64,000 nucleotides of DNA from Nitrospira sp. CG24E (GTDB taxonomy: Bacteria > Nitrospirota > Nitrospiria > Nitrospirales > Nitrospiraceae): positions 24,601-88,600 of the forward strand of contig NEWP02000009.1 in the NCBI GenBank assembly GCA_002869895.2, read 5' to 3'. The translations under genes were made by a program, and so were the position numbers. Below, piece by piece: positions 2,287-31,902 of this stretch. Position 1 is the stretch's first letter; each line of letters opens with the position of its first letter. The notes under the pieces were generated by a model. It ran no database searches and had not been told where the DNA came from. It saw only the letters and a program-made list of their open reading frames with translations.

Positions 2287-2343
2287 CGAACCCTCCCAGC
2301 ATTACAAATGTCATACGTAATGTAATACACGTGCGAGGTTACG

Positions 2344-4041: not shown

Positions 4042-4282
4042 GATCTGGTCCTTTGGTTTGAGGGGTCAACGACGTATGATCGCGCTGTGTATCCCCTCGG
4101 CAGTACCACTGTCAAGGGGGAGGATCGATGCACAAGAGAGAGGTGTAATTGCAAAGCCTGAGGTGGCCCCATCTCTTTTCCCCTTTGACTCTCTCCGCAA
4201 AACTCGTAGAATCCTCTTCAAGCCACGCGGGGCATGTGTGATTGCAAGACCCCATTTTCGGTCCAGAAAGTGGAGCTGGCGT

Positions 4283-4310
4283 GAGAAAACGTAGAATGTC
4301 CCCGTTTTCT
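4283..4310. repeat. solo copy of the terminal motif GAAAACGTAGAATGTCCCCGTTTTCT (GTAGAATG..CCCCGTTTTC family)
   Basis: Same about 26-nt stem-loop motif as at 26122-26148, 27484-27510 and 29422-29448, and inverted at 5871-5895. It abuts the truncated 5' end of the Rhs tip. Confidence 0.75.
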
Positions 4311-4356
4311 GCACCAACGATTTATTTCACAAGACCCATTTGGAATCGCTGGTGGA

Positions 4357-5750: not shown

Positions 5751-5870
5751 TCCCATACCGAAATAGGGGTGCCTATGAATAGGGAAAGGAGAGGGAAGAT
5801 GAAGCTTTCGAAGTGTTCTGTTCTTGCTTTAGCCGGGTTATGTATTGTTGCGGCAAGTGTAATTAGCAGG

Positions 5871-5895
5871 GAAGAAAACGGGGACATTCTGCATT
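5871..5895. repeat. inverted solo copy of the GAAAACGGGG.CATTCT.C motif
   Basis: GAAGAAAACGGGGACATTCTGCATT is the reverse complement of the motif at 26122-26148. Confidence 0.65.
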
Positions 5896-5920
5896 GTTTG
5901 GACGACCAATCGGGATAGAC

Positions 5921-6028
5921 GGAATTACTCATGACAGCTGTGGCTGAAATAGAAACAAAGAGCGCTGAGCGACGTTGGGGCGCAATGGCTCGCGTGAGCG
6001 CTGACGCCAGCGGAAACTTTCTGTTCTC
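5921..6028. repeat. repeat Q (CTGAATTACTGATGGCTGCTGTGGCTGAAATAGAAACGAAGAGC...), copy 1
   Basis: About 105-nt near-duplicate of 6508-6613. Its first about 60 nt recur at 8260-8325. Confidence 0.85.
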
Positions 6029-6450
6029 GACTGTCCCGACGGGACCACAAGTCCTGCTAATCGATGGCCCGTCCGCACTCTATCCCGGAAGCCTGCCGGT
6101 GCAGACAACCATTCAACCCGGCATCGCAAACGTGTTGCCCTATCCGGTGTTCCTGCATGAAGTCGGACAGAACTATGTGCCGATTGCGCAGGGTGGGCAA
6201 ACCATCGTCGCGCCGCCCGATATTCCTGGCTTTAGCATGTTGATTCCGGCAGGCACCACGATCACCGGCTGGGACGGCCAGCCTAATGTGAAGGTCTCGG
6301 TGGTGCCGGTGCCCAACGATCGCTTGCCGATTCCGCAATTGCCGGCAAACGTCCCGGCCAAACAGGTCTACATGTTCAACTTCGGCAAACCGGGTGGCGG
6401 CTACCCGAGTCGGCCGATCCCCATCATCATGCCGGGGAAGAAAAAGGTGG
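5985..6450 (+). pseudogene. fragment of the N-terminal region of an Rhs-family / carboxypeptidase-regulatory-like wall protein
   Basis: ARVSADASGNFLFSTVPTGPQVLLIDG... reads as a beta-sandwich-type sequence. Both ends of ORF 5931-6491 are made of repeat sequence (Q on the left, P on the right). Confidence 0.45.
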
Positions 6451-6452
6451 GG

Positions 6453-6496
6453 GAAGAAAAAGGTGTCAGGAACCATTTTCCTCATGAATGAGAAAA
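6453..6496. repeat. repeat P (GGAAGAAAAAGGTGTCAGGAACCATTTTCCTCATGAATGAGAAA), palindrome-containing REP-like unit, copy 1
   Basis: Identical 44-mer at 8371-8414. Contains the imperfect palindrome TTTCCTCATGAATGAGAAA. A related AAAAAGGTGTCAGACAC sits at about 29546. Confidence 0.85.
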
Positions 6497-7285
6497 GTAT
6501 GGACAGTCTGAATTACTGATGGCTGCTGTGGCTGAAATAGAAACGAAGAGCCCGAGCGAAGTTGGGACGCGATGGCTTGCGTCACCGCCGACGCTAGCGG
6601 GAACTTCCTGTTCACCAGGGAGAAGAAGAAAAGGGGCCAGCAACTTTATGTTCGGGGGGCGCCCGCGTCGGCGCAACGTGGATTCCAGTCCCAGCGTGGC
6701 AGCGAGTTGTTGTTGCCACTCGGGTGCGCCAAACGGTTGTTGACGGTTCACACAGGTGCGGAGTGCGGTGAGTTCATGATCAACGAGCGGCTGATCCATC
6801 CACGTCGTCCAATCCTCTGGCAGCGGAATCGGCGACGGATCGGTGAGGTGGGGCCGGTGCAAACTCGACCAGGGCCATTGGCTGGTGTGTGCAACCAGCC
6901 CGGCACGGACCGGATTGCGGAGCACATAGCGCAGGACCGTGAGGAGATGGCCGTCCTCTTGAATGGGGAAGCTTTTGAAACGCCCTTGCCACACATGCCC
7001 CTGACTGCGGTAGTGCCGATGATAGCGGCGGACATGACTGGTCATCCACCACTGCATGAAGGGACTGAGCGCGGCGTCCGTCAGAGGTTGCACGACGAGA
7101 TGAAAATGATTCGGCATCAGACAGAAGCCCAAGAGTGTGACGGGATGCTTGGCTTTCGCCGTGGCGAGCAGGTCGAGGAAGGCGGTGTAGTCACCCTCCT
7201 TGTGGAAGACCGCAGCACCGCCGTTCCCGCGATTCAGGACATGGTAGGCGTGCCCGGCCACTTGACCGCGAGGAATCCGAGGCAT
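6482..7285 (-). CDS. IS200-like Y1 (HUH) transposase, REP-associated RayT type
   Basis: MPRIPRG..YHVLNRGN, HUH motif in LMPNHFHLVVQP, catalytic-Tyr region LRYVLRNPVRAGLV, then LGLESTLRRRGRP. The last about 45 codons read through repeats P/Q, so the true C-terminus is uncertain. Confidence 0.8.
   Translation of the reverse strand: MPRIPRGQVAGHAYHVLNRGNGGAAVFHKEGDYTAFLDLLATAKAKHPVTLLGFCLMPNHFHLVVQPLTDAALSPFMQWWMTSHVRRYHRHYRSQGHVWQGRFKSFPIQEDGHLLTVLRYVLRNPVRAGLVAHTSQWPWSSLHRPHLTDPSPIPLPEDWTTWMDQPLVDHELTALRTCVNRQQPFGAPEWQQQLAATLGLESTLRRRGRPPNIKLLAPFLLLPGEQEVPASVGGDASHRVPTSLGLFVSISATAAISNSDCPYFSHS
6508..6613. repeat. repeat Q, copy 2
   Basis: Near-identical to 5921-6028. Overlaps the 3' end of the transposase ORF. 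Confidence 0.85.
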
Positions 7286-7605
7286 GGCGTGAACAGGGTA
7301 GGGGAAATCGGGGGCTCAGGCAACAGAAAAGTAGCCTTGTATCTTACTTCGGTGTTCCTTCACGATATGTCTTCCGGTAACCCAGACGTGATAGACCGAC
7401 GTAGCCGAGGTCTTCAAAGACCGTGGGACAGCGCGGGTCGTCACGTCTACATTCTGAACAAGCCCGAACAGTTGCGTGGGCCATTGAGCCCGCATCGCAA
7501 GGCTGGGACACAGAATTGGGAGGCCGGGGTCTCTGGTCCGTCAGTTGTGGCATGCGTGCCTCTGAGTACGCAGGGGCGCCTCTGCGTGCTTGACAGTCAA
7601 GAAAG

Positions 7606-7917
7606 TTGCTGTCCCCTGCGCTCCCCCATGTAGTTGTGAGGGGTGGAACTAAGGATCTCCCACCGCCAGGTCAAACATTTTCTGGCGCAGCCGGACCAAC
7701 CTTAAATGATGCAGCAGCTGGAGTACCACATAACCAAATAAGAGCGACTACGGCTGGTGAGATCAGAGCTAGTGGTGGAACAGTAGTTCATGCTCCTGAA
7801 CCAACCAGGTCAGGAGCCATTAATGACAAGCATGTAAATATTTGTTCCGGATCTGGCCCTTGTCCTTTCGGGCCACTTCAACCCAATCCTGTGCCAAAGT
7901 CAAGGAGAGTGCAATGA
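7606..7917 (+). CDS. orphan polymorphic-toxin C-terminal fragment (family unknown)
   Basis: Markedly AT-richer block; ATGA overlap with a small downstream ORF; no N-terminal delivery domain. The start codon is arbitrary (frame opens just upstream). Confidence 0.4.
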   Translation: MLSPALPHVVVRGGTKDLPPPGQTFSGAAGPTLNDAAAGVPHNQIRATTAGEIRASGGTVVHAPEPTRSGAINDKHVNICSGSGPCPFGPLQPNPVPKSRRVQ

Positions 7918-8231
7918 GTAACAGAAAAGAAATCTGGCTCCAAATCGAATACGGTGAATTTCACGACATCCCTAGAGCATTTGTCGTGAATTGGAATGGT
8001 GAGTCGTACTTCTTTGACTGTGCCTTTAGTGGTGCAATAGATGACTATCCTGATGAATTTATCGTTTACAAATTGCGCCAAAATATTTCACGCAATGGAA
8101 ATACACTTCCTTGGACGGAGCTTCACACGTATGGAGAACGTGTTGGGTCTGTCAGAACTCAGGATGTAGTGTTTGATGAGTCTAAAAGAAAAGCAATTCG
8201 CGGGGATGTGTTTGACACATTCGTAATTTGA
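7914..8231 (+). CDS. putative immunity protein (105 aa)
   Basis: AAGGAGAG Shine-Dalgarno 6 nt before the ATG at 7914, which overlaps the toxin stop. Sequence is acidic and aromatic (YFFDCAFSGAIDDYPDEFIVY). Same low GC as the toxin fragment. Confidence 0.55.
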   Translation: MSNRKEIWLQIEYGEFHDIPRAFVVNWNGESYFFDCAFSGAIDDYPDEFIVYKLRQNISRNGNTLPWTELHTYGERVGSVRTQDVVFDESKRKAIRGDVFDTFVI

Positions 8232-8259
8232 TAACGTGAATTAGCAAAATAGGGACAGG

Positions 8260-8325
8260 CTGAATTACTGATGGCTGCTGTGGCTGAAACAGAAACGAAG
8301 AGCGCCGAGCGACGGGGGAATGCGA
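8260..8325. repeat. repeat Q, copy 3 (short)
   Basis: CTGAATTACTGATGGCTGCTGTGGCTGAAACAGAAACGAAGAGCGCCGAGCGACGGGGG. Confidence 0.85.
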
Positions 8326-8370
8326 TGTCCCGTCCGCGTGTCCGCGATGGAAAGGCACCGACCGTTGGGT

Positions 8371-8414
8371 GGAAGAAAAAGGTGTCAGGAACCATTTTCC
8401 TCATGAATGAGAAA
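8371..8414. repeat. repeat P, copy 2; flanked by the 26-nt direct repeat TGTCCCGTCCGCGTGTCCGCGATGGA (8326-8351 and 8428-8453)
   Basis: Exact 44-mer match to 6453-6496. Confidence 0.85.
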
Positions 8415-8658
8415 GATGGAGACAGGCTGTCCCGTCCGCGTGTCCGCGATGGAACGGCACTGAGCTTTGAGAGAGTTTTTCGACAAATGGCCCGGCTGAA
8501 GCAGCATCATGATGGGTTTTCTGAGCGCTGAAATGTCTCGAGATGAAATGACGATGACTGGTTTTTCTTCAAAAACACGCGTGCGACCAACGATGAACGT
8601 ACTTCGGCCCCGCCGCGTCTGCTCGCGGCCCGGACAGCGCTGGTCTACTTCCCTGTAC

Positions 8659-8826
8659 CTAGCCATCGCTGGTGAAGGAATGCTCGATGGTGGCTTCCCA
8701 TTGCCGTTCCCAGCGGCGCAACCAGCGGCGACTCTGACGAGTGGATGTGAAGACATCGACGCCCGCCCAGACTTCGGCGGGTGTTCTTCCCCGGAGATGC
8801 TGATGCGGACGAAGGTTGCGGGTCAG
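8659..8826 (-). pseudogene. C-terminal remnant of an rve-type integrase/transposase
   Basis: Reverse-strand translation LTRNLRPHQHLRGRTPAEVWAGVD...* matches the ..RPH..L.G.TP...W end of integrase core domains. No upstream body is present. Confidence 0.5.
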
Positions 8827-8869
8827 GTTGTCGGTTCTTGGTTGCCGGTTGCTGGTAGTGGGTTGTCGG
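8826..8869. repeat. left inverted repeat flanking the four-helix-bundle gene (GGTTG.C phased units)
   Basis: GGTTGCCGGTTGCTGGT pairs with 16/17 positions of AACCAGCAACCGACAACC in 9251-9277. Confidence 0.7.
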
Positions 8870-8878
8870 AGGGACAGG

Positions 8879-9244
8879 ATGGAGAAAAAAGCCGATTACA
8901 CGGAGCTGGTTGTGTGGCAACGGGCGATCGCCCTCGTTCCGGAGGTCTACAAGCTGCTGAAGGCATTTCCAGCGGCGGAAACGTATGCGCTTGCGGATCA
9001 AGTTCGACGGGCCGCCGTGTCGATTCCGGCCAATATCGCCGAGGGACAAGCACGGCAGCATCGGAAGGAATTTCTGCAGCACCTGTCCATTGCAAAGGGC
9101 AGCTTAGCAGAGCTCCATACGCTGCTCATCGTGGCGCAGCAGGTGGGATACATCAATGGCGATCGTCTGCGGGAGATCGAAGCGGTGTTGCAGACTGTCG
9201 GCCGTCCGCTCGCGGGGCTGATCAATCGTCTTCGGCAAGGCTGA
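8879..9244 (+). CDS. four-helix-bundle protein (23S rRNA intervening-sequence protein family, TIGR02436-like)
   Basis: MEKKADYTELVVWQRAIALVPEVYKLLKAFPAAETYALADQVRRAAVSIPANIAEGQARQHRKEFLQHLSIAKGSLAELHTLL is the signature sequence of this family. Confidence 0.85.
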   Translation: MEKKADYTELVVWQRAIALVPEVYKLLKAFPAAETYALADQVRRAAVSIPANIAEGQARQHRKEFLQHLSIAKGSLAELHTLLIVAQQVGYINGDRLREIEAVLQTVGRPLAGLINRLRQG

Positions 9245-9250
9245 CCGTGA

Positions 9251-9277
9251 GCAACCAGCAACCGACAACCGGCAACG
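9251..9277. repeat. right inverted repeat flanking the four-helix-bundle gene
   Basis: GCAACCAGCAACCGACAACCGGCAACG is complementary to the left arm. Confidence 0.7.
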
Positions 9278-9282
9278 GGGCG

Positions 9283-9456
9283 AATGAGTTCGTCTCGGAC
9301 CCAGCGCGGCTTGGGCGGCGCGTGCGGCCGGCGAGTGGGACCGCCAGCTCTTGGATTCGGCCAGAAACGCTGAGCACATGGGTGCATCCACCGGAACATC
9401 CATTGGCACAGGAGCCGGCAGTAGCGTACGACCCAATACACGAGACTCCGCAGCAT
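9283..9456 (-). pseudogene. N-terminal remnant of the same (or another) transposase/integrase
   Basis: MLRSLVYWVVRYCRLLCQWMF...RRPHAPPKPRWVRDELI resembles transposase N-termini. The reading frame then runs straight into the inverted repeat. Confidence 0.35.
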
Positions 9457-9486
9457 GCTCCTCGCTTGTTACCACTGTGGATCGAG

Positions 9487-9895
9487 CTACGGATGGCAGG
9501 ATGGCGGAAGTCGATGAAGGATGGCTGCGTGGAGTGCGTCGGCGACAGCGACATATTCGCATGTTTCCGCCATGGAAGGTACCTGCGTGTCTCCTGGGTA
9601 ACGGAATTCCCATGCGAAGACCGGTCAGCGTCGTGGCTGGGCGTACGGTCTCGCTCAAGGTGGTATCCAGCTCAAGGCAGGCGCGTCCCAACTCGTCCAG
9701 GTCATGAGTTTTCTTGAACGGCTTGTCGTGCGCGGTGAGGAAGGCTTTCAAAGATTTTTCCGCTGCTTGCTGACAATGAAACAGCGGGTCTTCAATGAGT
9801 GGGGGATCTGCGTCGAGATCAATGTGGGCGCCACGCAAGTCGTTGGCTGCTTTGCTCAGCCAGCCCCTGACTACCGCAGCCTTGTCAGGCTGCAT
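9487..9895 (-). pseudogene. HEPN-domain toxin partner of MNT, interrupted by a 1-nt frameshift near 9620-9630
   Basis: Frame 0 gives MQPDKAAVVRGWLSKAANDL...AAEKSLKAFLTAHDKPFKKTHDLDEL...ATTLT. The conserved end VFAWEFRYPGDTQ...* lies in the adjacent frame (WEFRYPG = 9592-9612). The combined length of about 136 aa is normal for the family. Confidence 0.65.
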
Positions 9896-10217
9896 AGAGC
9901 AGCACGCCTTCTCGCTCCACCGTGGCCGACAACGAGCACACGATGGTCCGCTGGCGCTCAAATTCGTCATGAGTCAGCACGAGCACATCCTTGGCGACAC
10001 CGACTCCCAGTAAGGCTTCAAAGGCGGCCTGGTCACGGCGATACCGAGGTAGTGTCGATGCGGGGACGACGACGAGCAGATCGTAGTCACTGTCTGGCCC
10101 CGCTTCCCCTCGGGCCTGTGAGCCAAACAGGTAGATGCGCTCAGGGGACAACGCCGCGACGAGACGCTGCACGATTTTCTCAATCACCGAATCGCTGGCT
10201 TGGATGGCCATGGTCAA
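9885..10217 (-). CDS. minimal nucleotidyltransferase (MNT) antitoxin-type protein
   Basis: LFGSQARGEAGPDSDYDLLVVV NTase motif; 110 aa; 11-nt overlap with the HEPN start. Confidence 0.85.
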   Translation of the reverse strand: MTMAIQASDSVIEKIVQRLVAALSPERIYLFGSQARGEAGPDSDYDLLVVVPASTLPRYRRDQAAFEALLGVGVAKDVLVLTHDEFERQRTIVCSLSATVEREGVLLYAA

Positions 10218-10250
10218 CGTGGCTCCAACGTGGGCTGATTATACCGGGGT

Positions 10251-10487
10251 ATGTGCTCGATGTCTAAGGTTCTACGACAGCTGACACACAAGGGTTGGCT
10301 CTTGGCCGTCTTCTGTTGTGTTCTTCAATTGATCACACTGCCGGGCTTGCCTGCGGCACTCCATGCCGATCAGGCGCGATACATCTACGACGATCTCGAA
10401 CGTGGTGACGGCTTTCACGTCGAACAGCGGCAATGCAGGGGCGCTGGTTACGATAGTTCTAATGCATTTACTTCCTTGAGTAAGTAG
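10251..10487 (+). pseudogene. possible N-terminal stub of an Rhs/YD-repeat protein (signal peptide plus first YD-like repeat)
   Basis: MSKVLRQLTHKGWLLAVFCCVLQLITLPGLPAALHADQARYIYDDLER..., after which the frame degenerates. Speculative. Confidence 0.25.
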
Positions 10488-10581
10488 CGTAAAGGGGAGG
10501 GAGGGACTCGATGGCGACGGATGGATGATTGATCATTGAGTTGACATAATAGTTCTTATCAGACGTGGCAGGTTTTGAATT

Positions 10582-11253
10582 ATGTCCCTTGAATTACTCG
10601 GTCGCATACAACAGGAACTGTCCGTTACTGGAAGCGCCATCTATGAAACCGTTCTCGCTCTGGCCGAACGGGCTAATCGCAAAGTGCAAGTCCTCAGATT
10701 ACACAATCAGGCATCAACTGTCTTGACCCAAATGGAACAGGTCCATGGAGAGCTCGGGCGCGAGATTGCCACCCTCTGCGCCAGACGACCGCCCTTTAGC
10801 CATGAGTCAACCATGCCATCCGATCAATTGGAACAGTCCCTCGTTCAGGCCAGCCTCCGGGTTCAGCAGCTTAAACAGACCTTGCTGAGCGTCGACAGCC
10901 TTATCCGTGAGCTCAAGCTGGAGACAATCCACCAGGAACTTATAACCCTGCAACAGGACTTGAGTCTTCGCGCCGCTGCCATCGAGCGGTTTCCGATCTC
11001 CAAAGGATCGCCGGTTATTGGAAAATCACTCGCCGCGCTGGTATTGCCCACATCGGTTCGCCTCGTCACCATCCTTCGGGGGCCAATTCTTGTGCCGCCC
11101 GATAGTAACCTAACAGTGCGCGTTAACGACGTCCTGGTGTTTATCGGTCTGCAAGCAGATCTCGCACAGGTGATCACGGAATTTACCCCAGCACCGGATA
11201 CGAGACCCCGCTCAATCGAATCTGTGATCGCATCGAGTGCTCGAAGACCCTAA
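10582..11253 (+). CDS. coiled-coil protein with C-terminal TrkA-C (RCK_C) domain
   Basis: C-terminal ...GSPVIGKSLAALVLPTSVRLVTILRGPILVPPDSNLTVRVNDVLVFIG pattern. Confidence 0.55.
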   Translation: MSLELLGRIQQELSVTGSAIYETVLALAERANRKVQVLRLHNQASTVLTQMEQVHGELGREIATLCARRPPFSHESTMPSDQLEQSLVQASLRVQQLKQTLLSVDSLIRELKLETIHQELITLQQDLSLRAAAIERFPISKGSPVIGKSLAALVLPTSVRLVTILRGPILVPPDSNLTVRVNDVLVFIGLQADLAQVITEFTPAPDTRPRSIESVIASSARRP

Positions 11254-12685
11254 GAGCAGTAAGGCTGCTAGACGTCGGATGATGCCCATGCCACAAATTC
11301 TCATCTGCCTCATATGTTTAGCCTGGCTCAATATTCACTTAGCTGCCACTGCTGCTGAGCCAGCCATGCCAGAGTCCAATAGTTCAACTGGCATCCGCCT
11401 GATGGAAGAGATGCAAACGGTCATCATCAATTTGGCCGAATCGACCAAGCCCTCGGTGGTGAATCTTATTCCCCTTTCAGAAGCAGGGAAAGGTCGGGAA
11501 TTGTCTCGTGAGCGGACTCCCAACGCTTCAGGATCGGGATCCGGTGTCGTCATCGATCCTGATGGATATATCATCACCAACAACCATGTCATCGGTGACG
11601 CGACGGCAATCGAAGTGCGTTTTTCCGATACGTCTAAGCTGATTGCGCAGGTTATCGGCAAGGATCAGGATACGGACTTAGCCGTCCTCAAGGTGAGCGC
11701 CGACCATCCTCTCCCCAGTGCCAAATTCGGAGACTCGTCGTCCGTACGGGTCGGCCAATGGGTCCTTGCCGTGGGGAATCCCTTCGGACTCGATCGAACG
11801 GTGACCCTCGGCGTCGTCAGCGGAACCGGCCGAGAGAACATCAACCTTTCTCGCTACGAAAACTTCATCCAAACGGACGCATCGATCAATCCCGGCAACT
11901 CGGGAGGCCCGCTTTTCAATCTGCGCGGCGAAATAATCGGCATCAATACCGCCATCATCAACTTCGCCCAAGGGATCGGTTTCGCTATTCCCTCCAACAT
12001 GGTCAAGCAAGTGATGGAGCAACTGCTGACTCAGGGACGGGTGACAAGAGGATGGCTGGGCGTCAGCATTCAACCGCTGACGATCGAGTTGGCCCGTAAG
12101 TTCGGCGTCAACGAAGGCGAAGGGGTACTGGTGAACGAAGTCTTCGAAAAGGATCCGGCTGCGGCAGCCGGCATCAAACCAGGCGATATCCTCACCCGGA
12201 TCGACGGTTCCGTGATCGACACGCCGAATCGCCTCTCGCGCGTCGTGGCAGGATTGCGCCCAGGTATGACGACGAAAGTCGAGATTGTTCGTGATCGGCA
12301 ACGCCTGATCCTTGACGTGGCGTTGATTGAACGTCGAGACCAAGCAGTGGCCACGTCGCTTCCCCAGGCACAAATGGAAACTCCTCGACCACGTACTGAA
12401 ATCAACCTCGGCCTGGATGTGCAAGATCTGACGCCAAGCCTCGCCAATATTTTCAAACTGCAGGAAACTCGGGGTGTACTGATCACCAAAGTGGAACCAG
12501 GCGGCCTCGCCCAATCGGAAGGCCTCCATGAAGGCGATCTGATCAAGGAAGTCAACCGCGTTGCAGTAGGATCGGTTGGAGAATTCAATGTCGCTCTCTC
12601 CGGGGTCCGGCGTGGCGATACCATTCTGCTCCGCGTCCAGAGAGAAGGCCGCGCCTTTTACGTCGTGCTCAAATCGATCGACTAG
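11237..12685 (+). CDS. htrA: periplasmic serine endoprotease, HtrA/DegP/DegQ family, two PDZ domains
   Basis: His (TNNHV), DLAVLKV and GNSGGPLFN catalytic motifs. The start may be the internal Met at about 11279. Confidence 0.9.
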   Translation: MLEDPKSSKAARRRMMPMPQILICLICLAWLNIHLAATAAEPAMPESNSSTGIRLMEEMQTVIINLAESTKPSVVNLIPLSEAGKGRELSRERTPNASGSGSGVVIDPDGYIITNNHVIGDATAIEVRFSDTSKLIAQVIGKDQDTDLAVLKVSADHPLPSAKFGDSSSVRVGQWVLAVGNPFGLDRTVTLGVVSGTGRENINLSRYENFIQTDASINPGNSGGPLFNLRGEIIGINTAIINFAQGIGFAIPSNMVKQVMEQLLTQGRVTRGWLGVSIQPLTIELARKFGVNEGEGVLVNEVFEKDPAAAAGIKPGDILTRIDGSVIDTPNRLSRVVAGLRPGMTTKVEIVRDRQRLILDVALIERRDQAVATSLPQAQMETPRPRTEINLGLDVQDLTPSLANIFKLQETRGVLITKVEPGGLAQSEGLHEGDLIKEVNRVAVGSVGEFNVALSGVRRGDTILLRVQREGRAFYVVLKSID

Positions 12686-12686
12686 C

Positions 12687-12791
12687 CCGGTCTATCTGGT
12701 TTCTTTGGTTCATCTGGCTTGTTTGGTTTATCTGGTTGGCTGGTTAGTTTCGTTCAACCAAATAAACAAACAAACCAAATAGACCAACCAA
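12687..12791. repeat. phased-unit long hairpin repeat (core TTCAACCAAATAAAC)
   Basis: GGTCTATCTGGTTTCTTTGGTTCATCTGG...GTTCAACCAAATAAACAAACAAACCAAATAGACCAACC, between the convergent htrA and EF-G-like genes. Confidence 0.85.
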
Positions 12792-14891
12792 CTAATGCGT
12801 CGCCGCGTGGGCCGGCGCCTTATGTGTTTCAATGATGCGCACCGCAAGCTCGTGCGGCACCTCGTCGTAGCGCGAATGTTCCATTGTATAACTGCCCCGT
12901 CCAGCCGTTAAGGAATTCAGCGCGGTGGCATAGGTAAGCATCTCCGCCATTGGCACAAGAGCCGTGATCTGCTCAGTCTGGCCTTTGGCTTCCACATGGA
13001 GAATGCGCCCTCGGCGCGCATTCAAGTCCCCGATCACCCCTCCGATGTGATCCGCCGGCGCCTCGACTTCTACCGACATGATCGGCTCTAAGAGGATGGC
13101 GTGGGCCGACTCCAATGCCTTCTTAAACCCCATAGACGCGGCGATCTTGAAGGCCATCTCCGATGAATCTACTGCGTGGTATGATCCATCGTAGACCGCA
13201 ACCCGGCAATCGACGATCGGATGCCCGGCCAGACTCCCATGCTGCATGGCGTCGAGCACCCCCTTCTCCACCGCCGGAATGAAGTTGCGTGGAATGGCTC
13301 CGCCGACCACTCTATTCTCAAACTTGAATCCCTCCCCTCGCGACAAGGGCGCAAGCTCCAGCCAGCAATCACCGAACTGACCATGTCCACCGGTTTGCTT
13401 CTTGTATTTTCCCTGTGCCTGTGCTGTAGCACGAACGGTTTCTCGGTACGGAATCTTCGGCGTATGAAGCACGACTTCCGCGCTGTACTTGCGCCGTAAT
13501 TTTTCGAGCGCGAGATCGATGTGCAGTTGGCCCATCCCGCTCAACACCATTTCCTTCGTATCGGCATGTCGAGAAAATTCGAGGGTAGGATCTTCTTCGA
13601 TCAATTTATGCAGCCCAAGACTGACTTTCTCGATATCGGCGCTGGACTTCGGCTCGATCGCAAAGGACAACACAGGCCGTGGAAGCGCCGTCTTCGGATA
13701 GCAGATAGGATCATGTTCGTCGCAGAGCGTGTCGCCGGTTTGCGTTTCTTTGAGTTTGCCAATAGCGACGATATCCCCCGCTCCGACTGAAGGCACAACG
13801 GTATGTTTTTTCCCCAACACTGTATAGAGATGTCCACTCTTCTCCTTGCTGCTCCGGGAACTATTGAAGACTGTCGAGTCTGCGTGAAGCATCCCAGATA
13901 AGACCCGCAGATACGACAAGCGGCCGACAAACGGGTCGATCAGTGTCTTGAAGACGATCCCTGAAAATGGGTCCTCTTGGACGGCACGGCGGCTCACAGC
14001 CTCTCCTCTGCCAGGATGCAGGCCTTTCAGCGGAGCTCTCGTAGCCCGATCCGTCGGTGAGGGCAAGAACTCGACGATGCCATTGAGGAGTGGAACGATT
14101 CCGATATTCTTGATTGCGGAACCGCCGTAGAGTGGGACAACGGTGCCGGCCTGGACCCCAAGGCGAAGCCCGTTGATGACCTCTTCCCGCGTCAACTCCC
14201 CCGAAGCAAGATACTGTTCCAATAATCGATCGTCGCACTCGGCCGCTCCCTCCTGAATACGCTTCCGTGCCTCTTCTACCGAGGTTTTCACATCCGTAGG
14301 TATTGGCAACTGTTGAACGACGGGAGTCTCCTTGCGCGAAGTAACGAGACTCTCTTGAATGAGATCCAGCACCCCTTCGAGTTGGGCACCGCTGCCAAAA
14401 GGCAACGACATCGGCAAGGGCATCATTCCAAGGTCAAGGTGACAGGTCGCTGCTATCCCATCGAAGGAACTGCCGTCTTTATCCATTTCGTTGATGAAGA
14501 GGAGGCATGGCAAGCCGAGCGCGGTGACTCGCGCCCAGACCCTGATGAGTTCGCTTCGTATCCCCGATGAGGCGCCGACGACCAGGACCACCCCATCTAC
14601 CGCGCTCAATGTCATAAACGCCTCTCCGCGCAGGTCCAAAGCCCCGGGTGGATCGACAAGATTGATGGTGCGGTGATTCCAGGAACAACGGAGGAGACTG
14701 GTACTGACGGAACTACGCCGGTGCAGTTCTTCCGGCTCAAAGTCCGAAACGGTCGTGCCTTGCGCGATCGAACCGAGGTGAGGAACAGTGCCGGTGGCAA
14801 AGAGCAGAGCCTCTGCCAACGAAGTTTTTCCGGCGCCGGCGCTGGAGATTATGGCGACATTTCTGAGCGACTCCCTCTGTAGTTCGGTCAT
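12792..14891 (-). CDS. elongation factor G-like GTPase (EF-G paralogue)
   Basis: G1 AGAGKTS, DPPG, NEMD motifs and EF-G domains II-V. Start assigned to MTELQRE (AAGGAGGG SD upstream); the 32 extra N-terminal codons in the ORF track come from the hairpin repeat. Confidence 0.85.
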   Translation of the reverse strand: MTELQRESLRNVAIISSAGAGKTSLAEALLFATGTVPHLGSIAQGTTVSDFEPEELHRRSSVSTSLLRCSWNHRTINLVDPPGALDLRGEAFMTLSAVDGVVLVVGASSGIRSELIRVWARVTALGLPCLLFINEMDKDGSSFDGIAATCHLDLGMMPLPMSLPFGSGAQLEGVLDLIQESLVTSRKETPVVQQLPIPTDVKTSVEEARKRIQEGAAECDDRLLEQYLASGELTREEVINGLRLGVQAGTVVPLYGGSAIKNIGIVPLLNGIVEFLPSPTDRATRAPLKGLHPGRGEAVSRRAVQEDPFSGIVFKTLIDPFVGRLSYLRVLSGMLHADSTVFNSSRSSKEKSGHLYTVLGKKHTVVPSVGAGDIVAIGKLKETQTGDTLCDEHDPICYPKTALPRPVLSFAIEPKSSADIEKVSLGLHKLIEEDPTLEFSRHADTKEMVLSGMGQLHIDLALEKLRRKYSAEVVLHTPKIPYRETVRATAQAQGKYKKQTGGHGQFGDCWLELAPLSRGEGFKFENRVVGGAIPRNFIPAVEKGVLDAMQHGSLAGHPIVDCRVAVYDGSYHAVDSSEMAFKIAASMGFKKALESAHAILLEPIMSVEVEAPADHIGGVIGDLNARRGRILHVEAKGQTEQITALVPMAEMLTYATALNSLTAGRGSYTMEHSRYDEVPHELAVRIIETHKAPAHAATH

Positions 14892-25939: not shown

Positions 25940-26148
25940 CGGAGTGCGTATCTCGTGAAGCGTGAAGCGTATCGCGCAGGAAGTTTCGAGTTTCGGGTTT
26001 CTAGTTTCAGGCACAGACGGTTTAGGCAACATGAAACCTGGAACTTGCAACCAGAAACCCTAGACGATGAAAGCCAAACGATGAGAATATATTCAGTCGG
26101 CGGCTGCAGGAGTGAGACATCAGAAAAGTAGAATGGCCCCGTTTTCTT
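25928..26148. repeat. about 220-nt repeat ending in GTAGAATGGCCCCGTTTTC, copy 1
   Basis: Collinear with 29228-29448: CGGCTCT.AC..G.GCGTATCTCGTGAAGCGTGAA.CGTATCGCGCAGGA.GTTTCGAGTTTC.GGTTTCTAGTTT....AAAAGTAGAATGGCCCCGTTTTCTT. Confidence 0.85.
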
Positions 26149-26306
26149 TGCCTCGAACACGACGGCTTCAAGCCGGGCGAACGCGCAGGCGAATTCACAT
26201 AGAATATGAGCCAGGCGACGTAAGCCGGCATTCTTGCCTTTTACCCTTCGAGGGTCTATTCAGACTGAAGAAGTTCCGTTGCGGTCGTGCATGGAGAGCA
26301 ATTGCT

Positions 26307-26636
26307 ATGCTGAGTGTAGAGCAGGATCCTTTGTCGTTCGTTGAGCAAAACGCCTGCGAAGTGGCGTGCACTCTTCTGGCATCTGAACCACGGGTCAAGG
26401 TGTTTCTCTTTGGTTCAAGCGCGACCGAGCGTGCCAGCTCCCGATCGGACATCGATCTGGGTATCGATCTCGGTCACGCGATTGCACCGGAGATGCTTGC
26501 GTCATTACGCGATGCGTTCGATGAGTTGCCGATCATGCAGAAAGTCGACATTGTCGATTTTTCCGTACTCGACGAAGCGTTTAAAGCAGGGGCCCTTCAG
26601 CAAATCGAGAGTGTCTATGAGCGACAAGCTGCATAA
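26307..26636 (+). CDS. minimal nucleotidyltransferase (MNT), partner of an HI0074-type HEPN
   Basis: VFLFGSSATERASSRSDIDLGIDL motif; GGAGAG SD; 109 aa. Confidence 0.8.
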   Translation: MLSVEQDPLSFVEQNACEVACTLLASEPRVKVFLFGSSATERASSRSDIDLGIDLGHAIAPEMLASLRDAFDELPIMQKVDIVDFSVLDEAFKAGALQQIESVYERQAA

Positions 26637-27210
26637 TTTGTTAAGGCTTCCAGGTCTTGCGCTGACGCGCCTTGATGGGGCGTTAGCTCAGCCTGTCAAC
26701 GAATTCGTTCGTGATTCTGCCATCCAACGGTTTGAGTTTACCTTTGAATTATTCTGGAAGAGCCTGAAGGCATATGCCGAGGAGTCGGGGGTAGAAGCCT
26801 ATTGACCGAGAGACAGCGTCAGGACGGCATTTCAGCTAACAGGGTGCTGAAAAAGTCCGCCAGCGTCGTTCTCGCATCGTTCAGACCCTCAACGTACCCC
26901 AGAGGGTACGCTTCGGCCCTTCACTCACTGCGGCCTCGCTGGACAGTCTTTTTGAGCACCCTGGAGGTGAATTCTCCTGGTATGCCTCGCGCTCACCGTC
27001 GAAGTTCTTGCGCGTCAAACATAGTTTTCCAGCAGCCTGATCGGGGTGATCCAGGAACACCCCGATTGGCTTCGGATGTTGCAAGATCGCAACCTCACCA
27101 GCCATACCTATAACGAAGCGACGGCTAAATCGATCTACTCCCATCTCCCGGCCTATTGCCGCCTTATCCGCCAGGCGCATGCTGAGTTGTCTCAGAGGGT
27201 CACGCGCTAG
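26617..27210 (+). pseudogene. HI0074-family HEPN (nucleotidyltransferase substrate-binding protein), inactivated by an in-frame TGA (26803-26805) and a 201-bp insertion (26845-27045)
   Basis: N-part ..RDSAIQRFEFTFELFWKSLKAYAEESGVEAY*PRDSVRTAFQLTG; C-part VIQEHPDWLRMLQDRNLTSHTYNEATAKSIY...*. Both are in the same frame and together make a normal-length protein. Confidence 0.8.
26845..27045 (+). mobile_element. MITE-like structured repeat inserted in the HEPN gene; possible GGGTG target duplication
   Basis: Flanked by ACAGGGTG|CTGAAAAAG... and ...GATCGGGGTG|ATCC. Termini GGGTGCTGAAAAAG and CTTTTTGAGCACCC are complementary. Internal hairpin GTACCCcagaGGGTAC. Homologous to 21590-21778. Confidence 0.75.
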
Positions 27211-27350
27211 TTGTTTGGCAGCTCTCGCTCTATCTTTATGGCGAGCGAGGCCTCTTCAAGCCTGGCGAACTTGCCGCACAGTTCCGGTCAAAGTCCGTTC
27301 CCAACTCACCTACGCGTGGCGCAGCAGTCACCATCCATCGAAGAATGAGT

Positions 27351-27770
27351 CTAAAAAAGACACCCGGTACATCTGCTCTTTCCCGAACTTACACCGGAAT
27401 ACAATTCCCAAACAGAATACCCAGGCAACGAGAGCCGAGCGACGCAAAGCCAAGCAGTGGCTGTCTGGCAGGACTGACGCTCAGATAAGTAGAATGACCC
27501 CGTTTTCTTTCTGCCAGAATGTCCCCCTTCTTTAATTCGGCGCATCTTCCAAAATCCGGACGGCAGCTTCCCCAATCCCAGACGCACCAACCCTGCGCGG
27601 GCCAGACTGCGAAGATGTGCGGACTCCTTTTCGCCACGGTGGGGCAACGGCACCAGCTTGGCAATCGGTTTGCCTCGCTCCATGACGATGACTTCTTCTC
27701 CGGCTTTGACTATAGCCAGACAGGCACTCAATGTCGCCTTCAAGGCAGACACCGCTGCAGACTTCATCAT
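27351..27770 (-). CDS. Phd/YefM-type antitoxin (VapB-like); its C-terminus runs into a repeat and no toxin gene follows
   Basis: GGAGG SD; MMKSAAVSALKATLSACLAIVKAGEEVIVMERGKPIAKLVPLP...LARAGLVRLGLGKLPSGFW. After about residue 85 the codons are repeat sequence. Confidence 0.65.
   Translation of the reverse strand: MMKSAAVSALKATLSACLAIVKAGEEVIVMERGKPIAKLVPLPHRGEKESAHLRSLARAGLVRLGLGKLPSGFWKMRRIKEGGHSGRKKTGSFYLSERQSCQTATAWLCVARLSLPGYSVWELYSGVSSGKSRCTGCLF
27424..27510. repeat. partial copy (3' third) of the 220-nt repeat
   Basis: GGCAACGAGAGCCGAGCGACG...CTGGCAGGACTGACGCTCAGATAAGTAGAATGACCCCGTTTTCT compared with 29368-29448. Confidence 0.75.
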
Positions 27771-27946
27771 CAGACCTCCATGGTCATGTCCAATGTGACC
27801 ACGATAGTCTTCTTTATGATGCTGATCGTGCAAGCCGATGAGGACAATTGCGACGCACAGGCTCCTTGTCGCTTCTCGTCATCTACGATGGCCCGCTGTC
27901 ACCGTCTTTCGTGAGATCGTGCGAGTCTTTCCATCAGGAGAGACTG

Positions 27947-28471
27947 TTATCGTCCTGTCATTCGCTGACAAAACAGGTCCACCGTTTTATTGAATACAAA
28001 CAACATCGTGTCTTGTGGAGAGGCGGACACAGCACTCTCAGCCGCTGCCGCGATCGCTTCTGAAGCGACCTGGAATCGTCCGGCTACCCAAGCCGCATCG
28101 TCCAGATCCAACTCAGTCCCCCTCCGCAACTTCGCAATGATGAAATCGGTCGGGGCGAGCAACCGAATCCGCAGCTTCGGCCGATCGACCAACATGGACG
28201 CTCGCTCACGGTACCCCGGCGGCATTGCGATGACGGACCAGCCGGAAATGTTGGCGCCCAAGTCGGCGGGTACGTGGCGGTCTGTCAGGAATTGTATCAG
28301 CCCGGTCAAATCACCGATAAATTCGCCATCGATGTCCTGAGTGGTTCGATCCGGTGCGCCATATGCTTGAAGAGCAAGCCCCCCCACGAGGATCAGATCG
28401 ACGGAGCCGCCGGTCACGTGGACGTATTCGGTCAGCAGAGAAATCAGTTGATCAGTGGTGAGCTGAGACAA
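27947..28471 (-). CDS. DUF6036-like nucleotidyltransferase-fold protein
   Basis: VDLILVGGLALQAYGAPDRTTQDIDGEF and DFIIAKLRRGTELDLDDA patterns. TTG start; 20-nt overlap with the upstream ORF. Confidence 0.55.
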   Translation of the reverse strand: MSQLTTDQLISLLTEYVHVTGGSVDLILVGGLALQAYGAPDRTTQDIDGEFIGDLTGLIQFLTDRHVPADLGANISGWSVIAMPPGYRERASMLVDRPKLRIRLLAPTDFIIAKLRRGTELDLDDAAWVAGRFQVASEAIAAAAESAVSASPQDTMLFVFNKTVDLFCQRMTGR

Positions 28472-28769
28472 AACGGAGCGCCTCCATCACCGTGCGGTAG
28501 TCACGCTGGTCGATCGGGCCGGGGTCTGGGGGAAGTGGCGTGCGGACGACCAGTGTGGTGATGAGCGAACGATACGTGGTGAACCAGCGGCAGGCTTTCT
28601 GGTAGGCGGCTTGAACCGCCGTGTCGTGAAGCCATGGGGTGAGATCGAGTTGATCGTTCACCAGAATTTCGAGCCACAGCAAGCGCTTCCCTCGCTCGTC
28701 AGCCAGGGCGTCCTTCATCGAGGTGACGCCGGCATAGGCAGAAAGCAATTTAAACTGATCGGTGGCCAT
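28452..28769 (-). CDS. hypothetical protein, upstream partner of the DUF6036-like gene
   Basis: 105-aa ORF overlapping the downstream gene. No motif recognised. Confidence 0.4.
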   Translation of the reverse strand: MATDQFKLLSAYAGVTSMKDALADERGKRLLWLEILVNDQLDLTPWLHDTAVQAAYQKACRWFTTYRSLITTLVVRTPLPPDPGPIDQRDYRTVMEALRFVSAHH

Positions 28770-29227: not shown

Positions 29228-29448
29228 GAGCGGCTCTGACAGGCGCGTATCTCGTGAAGCGTGAAACGTATCGCGCAGGAGGTTTCGAGTTTCTGGTTTC
29301 TAGTTTTACGTTCGGAGGTTTGAGTAATGCACAACCCGAAACTCCTAACCAGAAACATCCGGCAACAAGAGACGAACGACGAGAATCTATTCAGCGGGTG
29401 ACTGGCAGGACTGAATCATCACAAAAGTAGAATGGCCCCCGTTTTCTT
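29228..29448. repeat. about 220-nt repeat ending in GTAGAATGGCCCCCGTTTTC, copy 2
   Basis: See 25928-26148. Confidence 0.85.
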
Positions 29449-29680
29449 GGTTCCAAGGTTGTTTGTTATCTTTCAGGGAAGGGGCTTAGTGATCTCCCAC
29501 TGCGCAGATCTTTCTCACCCGCCCACCCCGGCGCGCCAAGGAAAAGAAAAAGGTGTCAGACACTCAGTTTCCGCTGCACGCCTGCTCATTCGCACCCCTC
29601 TGGCCCAGCACCCATTCAGGCCTGACTGCGGCCGTCGAGCGAGGTTATAGATAATCCCTCTAAGCTCACTCGTTTGCTTC

Positions 29681-29785
29681 CAGGGAATGGGGGCTGAGTG
29701 ATCTTCTACTGCGCGCGTCCAACGAGGGCCTTCTCAGGCCGCGCGTTGCGCGAGCACAGAAGATCATCAGGCTCCATCCATCCCT
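29681..29785. repeat. long palindromic element (GATCTTCTACTGCGCGCGTCCAACG ... CGTTGCGCGAGCACAGAAGATC)
   Basis: The arms are complementary over about 30 nt. Same family as the outer arms at 46160-46362. A half copy is at 29474-29506. Confidence 0.8.
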
Positions 29786-29805: not shown

Positions 29806-31725
29806 TTAGGGCACGTTTCCCTTCATCAGTGAAATGATGCTCCTCATCGTCACTTGGTCGTCGTCGAATCCGCCGTGTGTCGTGCTCTTCGATTCCTTGC
29901 CGGGCGCTGCACAGGTATAGACGTTTGCCAATTGCTTGGCGGCAATCATGTCGTTGAAGTGTTTCTCCAAGCCCAATATTGGGGTCATCCGTCCCTGTTC
30001 GAGCGACTGCGAGACCAGATAGAGTAGCGAACGGGTGTATCCTAGGATCGGTTTGCAGGTTGGATCCTTCTGTTCGATATCGTCGGAGAGATGGAATTGA
30101 TTGAAGCGTTTGACTCTGCCATTTTTGATGGCTGGGATGACCGTCTCTTCAAAGAGATCGACTCGTACCGCCGGAGCCATAAAGTTCACGGTCTCGAAGG
30201 TCCACCCCTGCTCCCCCATCCGATGGACCACATGGCTGTGTAAGATGGAGCCGGCCGAATGGCCGATGAGATGCAAGCGCACCTTGGAGAGATCGGAAAA
30301 ATGCGGCGATGCTTGGCAGGCCCGATAGAGCTTCATGCCTCCACTCTCGGCCGTACTGGAAATCGCGTCTGCATTCTGTTTCATCTCGCTCCAGATCGCC
30401 GTCCCTGGCGAGGCCAGTAGTTTTTCAAGCCGTTCGTTCCACCAATTCTTGGCGCTGTCGAACAATCCGCCGGTCGGACGCTCCTGCCCCTTGAGGACAT
30501 CCGCAAGCCGCCCCTTCAGCGTCGACCAGAGATCGGTTTCCCACATCAGAAAGATCGGGAAGATCTTCTGTTCATACAGCGCGGGAATCCATTTCGCTGC
30601 GGTTTCTCCCGCATCGTCTTCGGACGTCAGCCCTCCATGCGCGTAAATCGCGATGTCCACTGGATCGTTCTTGCCCAGACCCCATGCGGTTCGAGCCCTG
30701 CCAAGATGGTCCGTAACCAGTGCCGTGATATCGGACTCCTGTGTGCGGAAATCACCGGTGTTGCTGAGCCGGCCATTGTTCTCCATATCGATAATAAAGG
30801 GGCTGATCTCGCGTTTCCGTAACGAGGGCTCCCCGGCCAACTGTACCTTGCCTGCATCCAGACGCAAGGTGGGCGAATGCGCGATTTCCAGATGAAGCTC
30901 CGTCACGACACCCAGCTGAGCCACCCAACAGTCCATCGCATGGTCGAGCCAGTCTTCATAGAGTAATACGGCGCGGCCTCTCATACCCCAGCCGGAGCCC
31001 CAGGAGTTATGAACGATAAATCCGTCCTGGTTGTAGCCGACGATTGCAAAGGCATGGCCGCCGTCGCTGAGACCTGCCTTCCGGTGTGGAATCACCCAAT
31101 AGCGGCCTTTGCTCTGTGATCTCTTCTTGAGTCCCTCCTCCCAACCTGAGTGACAGACAGCGCTGGCATAGAGAATCCCAATCTCGTTGAGGGCGACGTG
31201 CATATCGGCGACCGATCGCGTGTCGACACGGTAATAGGCTCCGAGCGGACGTTGGACTGCATCGAGCCACCAGTCCTCCGCGCACTTTGCCACATGCGGC
31301 AGCGGCATCTTCTCCGAGGTCCAGAGCCGGTCCGAGCAGGCGCCGTGTTTGTACCAACCTTTCATGGCGCCGCGCAGGCTCGATCCTGTATCGACATCCG
31401 GAGCGCCGGGAAATTCATCGTAGCGCCGGGCCATTGAGTACAACATGAAGGGAGAGACGCAACAATCCTTCTGCTTCCGTTTGGCTGCTTGCTGTAAGTG
31501 ACAGACAACGCCGGCCAGCGCAAAGCCGGTGCAGGCGTTGGTCTGTTTTTGATCGAGCACAGGGATGTCGGCTTTCGGATCAAACACCAAGTCCGGCACA
31601 ACCGCCACCGGAGGCATATAGAGCCTGTCCCGTAGATCGAGCCGATCGGGAACCACATTGCGTATCGGGATGGCTGCAGCGTCAGGTTTCCCCGCTCTTC
31701 CAACCGTCGCTTTGCTCTTCGGCAT
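29806..31725 (-). CDS. fusion protein: N-terminal papain-like (C1) cysteine peptidase plus C-terminal alpha/beta hydrolase (lipase/esterase-like)
   Basis: DQKQTNACTGFA (Gln/Cys), GGHAFAIVGY (His), VHNSWGSGWG (Asn). Then AIYAHGG (HG oxyanion motif), HLIGHSAGS (nucleophile elbow), late SDD and THGG. No signal peptide. Confidence 0.75.
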   Translation of the reverse strand: MPKSKATVGRAGKPDAAAIPIRNVVPDRLDLRDRLYMPPVAVVPDLVFDPKADIPVLDQKQTNACTGFALAGVVCHLQQAAKRKQKDCCVSPFMLYSMARRYDEFPGAPDVDTGSSLRGAMKGWYKHGACSDRLWTSEKMPLPHVAKCAEDWWLDAVQRPLGAYYRVDTRSVADMHVALNEIGILYASAVCHSGWEEGLKKRSQSKGRYWVIPHRKAGLSDGGHAFAIVGYNQDGFIVHNSWGSGWGMRGRAVLLYEDWLDHAMDCWVAQLGVVTELHLEIAHSPTLRLDAGKVQLAGEPSLRKREISPFIIDMENNGRLSNTGDFRTQESDITALVTDHLGRARTAWGLGKNDPVDIAIYAHGGLTSEDDAGETAAKWIPALYEQKIFPIFLMWETDLWSTLKGRLADVLKGQERPTGGLFDSAKNWWNERLEKLLASPGTAIWSEMKQNADAISSTAESGGMKLYRACQASPHFSDLSKVRLHLIGHSAGSILHSHVVHRMGEQGWTFETVNFMAPAVRVDLFEETVIPAIKNGRVKRFNQFHLSDDIEQKDPTCKPILGYTRSLLYLVSQSLEQGRMTPILGLEKHFNDMIAAKQLANVYTCAAPGKESKSTTHGGFDDDQVTMRSIISLMKGNVP

Positions 31726-31902
31726 GAGAAACTCCTTTCGGATCTGTATGGACGCCGGCTGAGAGTCTGCTGTTAATATTTAATTCGAAGAAAACCTGCG
31801 CTGTATTATCAGAAGATTCCCACAGCCCGTCAAATACCATTCATTCCCACTCTCTCATACCCCGGTTTGACTTCAGCTTCCTTGCCCTCCTAGAATCGCG
31901 CC

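Follow-up and report, generated by a model that had tools for sequence, protein, structure and literature searches.

A leaderless fusion of a xylellain-type peptidase and a lipase-like alpha/beta-hydrolase, widespread in bacteria and a candidate envelope-damaging effector in Nitrospira

Our analysis of a 64,000-nucleotide stretch of the genome of Nitrospira sp. CG24E (assembly GCA_002869895.2, contig NEWP02000009.1, positions 24,601 to 88,600; hereafter the window) centers on a gene whose 639-amino-acid product unites, in one leaderless polypeptide, a papain-family C1A peptidase and an alpha/beta-hydrolase. The complete coding sequence occupies positions 29806..31725 of the minus strand and starts with ATG (codon positions were checked), and its product is 100% identical to a Nitrospira sp. 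CG24E protein labelled 'peptidase C1A papain'. The two-domain core recurs across many phyla with the catalytic residues of both halves retained down to ~31% identity, and some of its relatives bear additional domains, mostly envelope-degrading. We tentatively, and with somewhat less than even confidence, read the protein as a self-contained, zymogen-like protease and lipase effector that acts without a leader and would damage the envelope of the cell that produces it. An earlier note on this DNA had proposed a dual-hydrolase effector belonging to a local defence island; the pairing of the two hydrolases has held up and the island has not.

A xylellain-type peptidase with a conserved N-terminal segment

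The N-terminal half is a MEROPS C1A peptidase of the xylellain type. The peptidase domain spans residues 46-275 (30901..31590; this and all other features of the gene lie on the minus strand) and holds the full C1 catalytic set that the earlier note had recognized, namely Q59 (codon 31549-31551), C65 in the motif NACTGF (31531-31533), H224 in GGHAF (31054-31056) and N240 in HNSWG (31006-31008), with the spacing of papain, 6 residues from Q to C and 16 from H to N. Residues ~22-275 match xylellain (PDB 3OIS) with E=4.8e-10 for the single sequence and E=2.4e-31 for the family profile, the latter match spanning profile positions 12-252. Among 42 diverse relatives, 38 match the Pfam family Peptidase_C1 (PF00112) at E<=0.01; the window protein alone scores 15.7 bits against a cut-off of 20.7 and is thus sub-threshold, as are all of its Pfam matches. 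H224 and N240 never vary in a set of 42 representatives (31-61% identity), in which C65 is conserved at 98% and Q59 at >=90%. Only C65 stands out among the cysteines, and because no other has a conserved partner, the disulfides of papain are absent from the family. Hydropathy scans (a heuristic, not SignalP) found no signal peptide or transmembrane segment in the window protein, in agreement with the earlier note, or in 147 family representatives.

Ahead of the peptidase domain, residues 1-21 (31663..31725) form a basic, weakly conserved tail without a hydrophobic, signal-like stretch, and residues 22-45 (31591..31662) form a conserved segment with the motif PDxxDxRDxxYxP (P26-P38). The core of this motif, PDxxDxRDxxY, is present in at least 118 of the 147 representatives at a fixed 37-50 residues ahead of the catalytic cysteine. 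It lies inside the alignment to 3OIS, where it is common to xylellain residues 35-48, and in relatives with N-terminal extensions it marks the junction of the accessory enzyme and the C1 domain. The N-terminus of xylellain reportedly blocks that enzyme's active site. By analogy, residues 22-45 represent a putative autoinhibitory plug that probably fills the active-site cleft in the same manner. The zymogen suggested in the earlier note is plausible, though the likely plug is this N-terminal segment and not the interdomain 'linker' to which the role had been given.

The alpha/beta-hydrolase domain

The C-terminal domain, residues 296-639 (29809..30840), is a Ser-Asp/Glu-His alpha/beta-hydrolase of the lipase or phospholipase kind. 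The HG oxyanion motif and GHSAG elbow named in the earlier note correspond to H363-G364-G365 (from codon 30637-30639) and G-H-S490-A-G (S490, 30256-30258), and the candidate catalytic histidine is H617 (29875-29877). In the 42 representatives H617 and E551 (30073-30075) are invariant, and S490, D554 (30064-30066) and H363-G364 are conserved at >=90%; the other positions of the H363-G364-G365 and G-H-S490-A-G motifs are likewise either invariant or conserved to that degree. The conserved acid candidates are E551 and D554, and not the 'SDD' at residues 547-549 that had been put forward. A model of the domain reaches a predicted local distance difference test (pLDDT) score of 93.8 and a predicted template modelling (TM) score of 0.92. 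Residues 296-355, previously counted as part of a linker of ~70 amino acids, are an ordered N-terminal portion of this domain (pLDDT 96-98), in which a helix (300-310) and a strand (311-314) are followed by the loop NNGxLSxxGxFRT and a second helix (330-347). The ordered element that contains this loop, MENNGRLSNTGDFRT (residues 314-328, 30742..30786), carries a motif that is invariant among closer relatives (alignment A1) and partly conserved across the diverse set.

The best Pfam relative of the domain is DUF900 (PF05990), matched by 7 of the 42 relatives at E<=0.01 (best E=4.9e-6). The window protein scores 12.6 bits against DUF900 and does not reach the gathering threshold of 20.5, and we therefore regard the domain as a related but separate family. 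Foldseek with the C-terminal model found no close solved or viral relative, with TM-scores of at most about 0.5. The best matches (E=3e-4 to 1e-2, TM ~0.25-0.5) are the DDHD phospholipase-type domain of Nir2 and pancreatic lipase-related protein 2, joined in the same range by a feruloyl esterase, FSH1, TesA and lipases; viral matches are of the PGAP1-like, DUF676, lipase and phospholipase-like kinds.

Likeness to a protease-activated hydrolase

LcHydrolase of Lysobacter capsici is a zymogen whose insertion is cut at two R|G sites by a neighboring caspase-like protease, LcCaspase, and this cleavage kills the cell (Evans et al. 2025, bioRxiv 10.1101/2025.11.14.688446). In hhalign, the profile of the window family aligns to LcHydrolase over 165 columns with 71.6% probability (E=3.5e-5), whereas three control alpha/beta-hydrolases give 0.1-7.1%. 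The alignment covers the oxyanion strand, the long helical insertion and the nucleophile elbow. The counterpart of the cleaved segment is a low-confidence loop of variable length in the helical insertion, residues 398-423 (30457..30534), which carries a semi-conserved R-x-G-G, here RPTGG, and from this correspondence we infer a candidate site of proteolytic licensing. In conflict systems, caspase-superfamily genes are reported to be always accompanied by an alpha/beta-hydrolase gene, and lysozyme and papain-like peptidoglycan peptidases to serve there as effectors (Kaur et al. 2020, PMC7159879). Leaderless wall-degrading fusions thus need no export to a competitor.

Fused domains and informative neighbors

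An N-terminal extension of >=90 amino acids is present in 22 of the 147 representatives (about 15%). The extension is a phospholipase-C-type phosphoesterase (PF04185) in three confirmed cases and two more that appear alike by eye, a PF11860 muramidase in two, and Amidase_2 in four. GH19, PG_binding_1, a Tlde1 domain and a second alpha/beta-hydrolase (DUF7379) were found once each, in addition to a weak Vps62 match, and one member has a GH19-like motif at its C-terminus instead (judged by eye). NCBIfam holds no model for core or extended members and gives only weak phospholipase C or acid-phosphatase matches in the N-terminal extension. Most of the recognized extra domains are peptidoglycan hydrolases or phospholipase C, and every extended member is leaderless. 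In Rhizobium etli a peptidoglycan amidase gene lies 80 nucleotides upstream of the family member, and in S. fredii a gene for a peptidoglycan-binding protein adjoins it. These fusions, together with the rhizobial gene adjacencies, therefore tie the core functionally to destruction of the cell envelope.

Three family members also lie beside protease modules of conflict systems. A Rokubacteria relative that is 59% identical to the window protein (locus L020) has a Peptidase_C14 gene directly upstream, the Rhizobium leguminosarum copy has trypsin-like and caspase-family genes nearby, and an apparent conflict-system operon at 2067-13480 of the metagenome-assembled contig JBJSWD010074495.1 (locus L174) encodes a TPR-CHAT protease, four small unannotated open reading frames (ORFs), the Tlde1-fused family member P0299, Trypco1 and Trypsin_2. 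This operon further includes a gene for a 437-amino-acid protein with a weak alpha/beta-hydrolase match; Trypco1 is the Pepco pore-former. When additional neighbors of the caspase, CHAT, trypsin or Trypco kind were sought with greater sensitivity, L020, L088 and L174 alone came up, and no new case. At L020 (AR5 contig QHRW01000155.1) the caspase-domain gene is at 1040-2023 on the same strand, 127 nucleotides upstream, and its product shares 51% identity with the C-terminal half of the 'caspase family protein' near the copy on R. leguminosarum pRle248d, an indication that the caspase module is mobile.

Two further architectures deserve mention. At the C-terminus of six proteins (P0288, P0297, P0309, P0317, P0320 and P0351), a spacer rich in Pro and Ala precedes a short common motif, D-[ILM]-L-x3-G-[WY], which could be a docking or targeting tag. 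On a Roseivivax marinus plasmid (L180, 4924-7800), a 958-amino-acid protein annotated as a trypsin-like peptidase includes the family's C1 domain as well; because the match covers query residues 23-409, this is a trypsin-C1 fusion without a complete hydrolase domain.

A tentative model for damage to the producing cell

In the reading that we tentatively favor, a trigger would remove or displace the autoinhibitory N-terminal plug, and the freed peptidase may then cut the R-x-G-G loop in the helical insertion, licensing the hydrolase in cis. Membrane lipid esters would be the target of the hydrolase, and envelope or cellular proteins that of the peptidase, such that the envelope of the producer itself would be damaged from inside. 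In relatives equipped with muramidase, amidase, GH19, Tlde1 or phospholipase C domains, degradation of the wall would then follow. A more specific form of this model, which we consider doubtful, is a sensor-less lysis module gated by its own protease within a single polypeptide: the plugged papain-family peptidase would license a phospholipase-like hydrolase in cis, the inner membrane would be breached, and the fused peptidoglycan hydrolases of the relatives would thereby reach the wall, giving holin-independent programmed lysis from a stable chromosomal gene that is conserved across Nitrospira and many phyla of soil and fresh water. The general idea of a conflict effector put forward in the earlier note gains partial support from the peptidoglycan hydrolase and phospholipase C fusions, the likeness to LcHydrolase and the few caspase, CHAT and trypsin-Pepco neighbors; the island context once attached to it is not supported.

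Several observations weigh against the favored reading. The likeness to LcHydrolase is remote and requires profiles to detect, as jackhmmer with LcHydrolase recovered no family member. The loop motif is R-x-G-G, not R|G, is found in only about half of the sequences, and has no second site. The full-length AlphaFold model has a pLDDT of 67.2 and is poor in its N-terminal half, residues 1-50 included, so occlusion of the cleft is not seen in it; Foldseek with this model re-found papain-like folds and nothing else. Known protease-effector modules are tied to sensors, yet there is no sensor domain in the 147 representatives and no sensor gene. Caspase, CHAT or trypsin neighbors occur at only 3 of about 100 cellular loci, the 150 immediate neighbors in 80 genomes fall into 136 Pfam families of which none occurs in more than 4 loci, and PADLOC-DB v2 gives 0 families at E<=1. 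Within Nitrospira the gene keeps its syntenic position and its full length throughout, at 81-84% identity, a constancy that would be unusual for a gene of defence or suicide.

Should the protein nevertheless prove to be a fused protease-hydrolase death or lysis module, the newly described principle of effectors gated by proteolysis would also cover papain-family proteases and an in-cis arrangement without a sensor. A function could then be given to the enigmatic xylellain-type peptidases, and the fusion would be a tractable means of approaching what alpha/beta-hydrolase death effectors act on. It would also point to a capacity for programmed lysis in nitrite-oxidising and comammox Nitrospira, which are central to nitrification and wastewater treatment. 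If it were instead a delivered toxin, it would represent a new multi-enzyme antibacterial scaffold with no known export route or immunity gene.

Distribution of the family and the case for a delivered toxin

An exhaustive search of 1.84 billion representative proteins (clusters at 50% identity) returned 5482 matches, 681 of them at E<=1e-30, and in species-representative genomes at least 581 stretches encode relatives. Most of the best 150 matches cover residues ~20-635 in a single stretch, from which we conclude that the two-domain core is old and widespread. Relatives occur in Nitrospirota, Acidobacteriota, Burkholderiales, Rhodocyclales, Gallionellaceae, Rokubacteria and Xanthomonadales, and in Bacteroidota, Verrucomicrobiota, Planctomycetota, Gemmatimonadota and others, and cultured carriers include Edaphobacter aggregans DSM 19364, Lacibacter luteus, Lysobacter yangpyeongensis and Eleftheria terrae; a profile search with alignment A2 against a big protein collection hardly widened this diversity. 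For a family of this size and breadth its annotation is sparse: members are called merely 'C1 family peptidase', there is no curated model of the whole protein, and, as the earlier note had supposed, we found no characterized member in the literature. In a recent papain-family survey, multidomain C1A proteins of prokaryotes were expressly excluded from analysis. An origin in phages was considered and rejected, as INPHARED phages and IMG/VR contigs contain single-domain C1 relatives only, at 23-29% identity.

Identity between phyla reaches 68-74%, and we therefore infer horizontal transfer under strong constraint. Such transfer, and the patchy occurrence across phyla that accompanies it, would suit a delivered antibacterial or lytic effector, a leaderless protein exported through cargo loading onto a type VI secretion system (T6SS), a holin-type route, vesicles or lysis, and directed at the membrane, the proteins and, in fused relatives, the wall of a competitor. 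Interbacterial toxins typically carry such domains as the accessory Tlde1, muramidase, Amidase_2, GH19 and phospholipase C, the hosts (Lysobacter, Acidobacteria and Chitinophagaceae among them) live in soil and fresh water, and a T6SS is present in at least one Nitrospira species. A secreted bactericidal phospholipase of the DUF900 class is likewise a single gene in an uninformative context. The genetic setting speaks otherwise. None of the 147 representatives contains a PAAR, VgrG, Rhs, MIX or other trafficking domain, and no VgrG, PAAR, Hcp or adaptor gene, nor any other T6SS gene, holin gene or conserved immunity-like gene, adjoins the 80 genomic copies. The lack of an immunity gene counts against a delivered toxin because toxins acting on the wall or membrane are expected to have one. 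The absence of the family, in its two-domain form, from phages and viral contigs and the high conservation and synteny in Nitrospira, unusual for an effector, point in the same direction, and we did not find a paper linking Peptidase_C1 with T6SS effectors. We thus judge delivery to a competitor to be unlikely.

The wider neighborhood surveys gave a consistent picture. All-versus-all clustering of ORFs within 6 kb of 80 loci revealed no recurrent partner, the downstream genes include no consistent small gene with a signal peptide, and no secretion, immunity, T6SS, phage, toxin-antitoxin (TA) or defence family is enriched among the 150 immediate neighbors. In ten divergent homologues whose contexts were labelled by Pfam or annotated, the gene is solitary, with unrelated and mostly metabolic neighbors. 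Neighborhoods this random would not be expected of a defence-island gene, of a classical T6SS effector-immunity pair or of a member of a conserved metabolic operon. The defence-island enrichment that the earlier note had proposed to look for among homologues is accordingly missing; its proposal would have been refuted by catalytic residues that vary through the family or by homologues housed in conserved metabolic operons, and we find instead that the residues are conserved family-wide and that the homologues lie outside such operons.

Chromosomal setting in Nitrospira and the case for a housekeeping enzyme

The window is core chromosome, with genes for phosphoglucomutase, HtrA, EF-G, purD, purH, dnaE and accA. 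Its backbone is common to other Nitrospira in the order purH, OmpA/BON, a ~440-amino-acid protein, a variable stretch, the peptidase-hydrolase gene, a second variable stretch, dnaE and accA. The variable stretches hold an arginase and an amino-acid permease in some Nitrospira, and TA modules in the CG24E window only. The identity of the protein between these Nitrospira genomes, 81-84%, compares with 91-93% for dnaE, accA and purH and 60-75% for envelope proteins, and both domains are full length across more than 90 Nitrospira clusters. This synteny marks the gene as a vertically inherited, solitary backbone gene, and the TA and nucleotidyltransferase (NTase) block beside it as a local insertion of ~3.5 kb.

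Vertical inheritance at a fixed position among core genes, with both domains intact, is what would be expected of a housekeeping hydrolase, a cytoplasmic bifunctional enzyme for turnover of proteins and lipids or esters, or for remodeling or recycling of the envelope or its lipoproteins, with no part in conflict. The mostly metabolic neighbors and the lack of both a signal peptide and disulfides agree with such a role, and Amidase_2 enzymes can be cytoplasmic recycling enzymes, as in the case of AmpD. Fusions to muramidase, GH19, peptidoglycan-binding, Tlde1 and phospholipase C domains, however, fit a cytoplasmic metabolic enzyme poorly. The distribution is patchy with clear transfer across phyla, neither an operon partner nor a pathway context is conserved, some relatives reside in caspase, CHAT or trypsin-Pepco neighborhoods, and the conserved pro-segment implies an activity that must be restrained. 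Taken together, we find a pure housekeeping role rather improbable. In several Nitrospira (L001-L004), the gene and that for an arginase, which has an amino-acid permease next to it, diverge from each other, and in a Gallionellaceae genome (L005) it directly follows argD-argF-argG-ppnP-yajQ; this recurrent nearness to arginine metabolism may be coincidence.

The local toxin-antitoxin block, repeats and promoters

The neighbors listed in the earlier note are present. The insertion at 26106..28769 comprises an MNT-type NTase (26112-26636), an NTase_sub_bind (HEPN-like) partner region (26802-27210, plus strand), Phd/YefM, and a DUF6036 NTase with its partner. The NTase_sub_bind partner is left as a 54-amino-acid ORF corresponding to the last third of the Pfam profile, with the remainder apparently in another frame, and this toxin gene is therefore probably frameshifted or decayed. 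The DUF6036 NTase (174 amino acids) shares a 20-nucleotide overlap with an upstream 105-amino-acid ORF that lacks a Pfam match (27947-28769, minus strand), and the pair looks like a second two-gene TA-like module of the NTase type.

It was this proximity, in combination with a leaderless protein bearing two potentially destructive activities, that gave rise to the idea of a single-gene abortive-infection system belonging to a TA- and repeat-rich defence island. The block is absent at the equivalent position in other Nitrospira that keep the gene, which renders the TA modules incidental. In view also of the core chromosomal setting, the lack of a PADLOC match and the lack of defence enrichment around the 80 homologues, we regard this explanation as highly improbable.

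As had been noted, the gene is monocistronic and abuts the dnaE promoter region, from which it diverges over a 177-nucleotide spacer with promoter-like sites on both strands. The site 5' of the gene, TTGACG and GATAAT separated by 17 nucleotides (31805..31833, minus strand), stands back-to-back with that of dnaE (31867-31896, plus strand), both being recognized by consensus match only. The repeats reported on the 3' side are likewise there, within ~700 nucleotides of non-coding DNA. This repeat region (29281..29714) contains an inverted repeat (29281-29356), a 25-nucleotide direct repeat (29481-29505 and 29690-29714) and one copy of an interspersed repeat with the core AAAAGTAGAATGGCCCC, which occurs on the plus strand at 4287-4303, 26106-26157, 27403-27518 and 29340-29456. 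The core is thus present in 4 copies in the window, where chance would give 0.09. Three of the copies flank the TA and NTase modules. The repeat includes the hexamer TAGAAT, which the promoter-like site of dnaE contains as well, and may mark cassette boundaries or serve as a promoter element. Neither Rfam nor tRNA scans gave a match in the window.

Comparison with known systems

Xylellain from Xylella fastidiosa is the closest known counterpart of the peptidase half, with which it has in common the papain fold, the Q/C/H/N set, the N-terminal P-D-x-x-D-x-R-D-x-x-Y-x-P segment and the lack of both a leader peptide and the classical papain disulfides. In contrast to the window family, in which the peptidase is permanently fused to an alpha/beta-hydrolase, xylellain is a single domain (a crystal chain of 291 amino acids), the form to which phages are also restricted, and its identity to the window protein in the alignment is only moderate. 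For the hydrolase half, cinquedea from Haloferax larsenii, a DUF900-class secreted hydrolase shown by experiment to be a bactericidal phospholipase A, offers a parallel in its HG oxyanion motif and GxSxG elbow and in being a single-gene unit with an uninformative context. Cinquedea is secreted and has one domain, whereas phospholipase activity in the window family is predicted from likeness. The Tle lipases and Tlde1 effectors of the T6SS resemble the family in being leaderless, with a lipase-like GxSxG in the former and, among the relatives of the window protein, Tlde1 (one), muramidase or amidase domains; the window family differs in having no adjacent VgrG, PAAR, Hcp, adaptor or immunity gene and no trafficking domain.

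The LcHydrolase and LcCaspase system likewise pairs a protease with a lipase-like alpha/beta-hydrolase, both leaderless, and its hydrolase likewise has a long insertion of helices that separates strand beta4 from the nucleophile strand and includes a flexible loop containing Arg and Gly. A few members of the window family adjoin caspase-like genes as LcHydrolase does. In the window family the protease is of the papain family (clan CA) and is fused in cis, whereas LcCaspase is the product of a neighboring gene; one R-x-G-G loop stands in place of the two conserved R|G sites, and no sensor (STAND, WD40) is attached or adjacent. The closest functional analogues of the window family thus appear to be the protease-gated alpha/beta-hydrolase death effectors, from which the family is set apart by a papain-family protease, a fusion in cis and the absence of a sensor.

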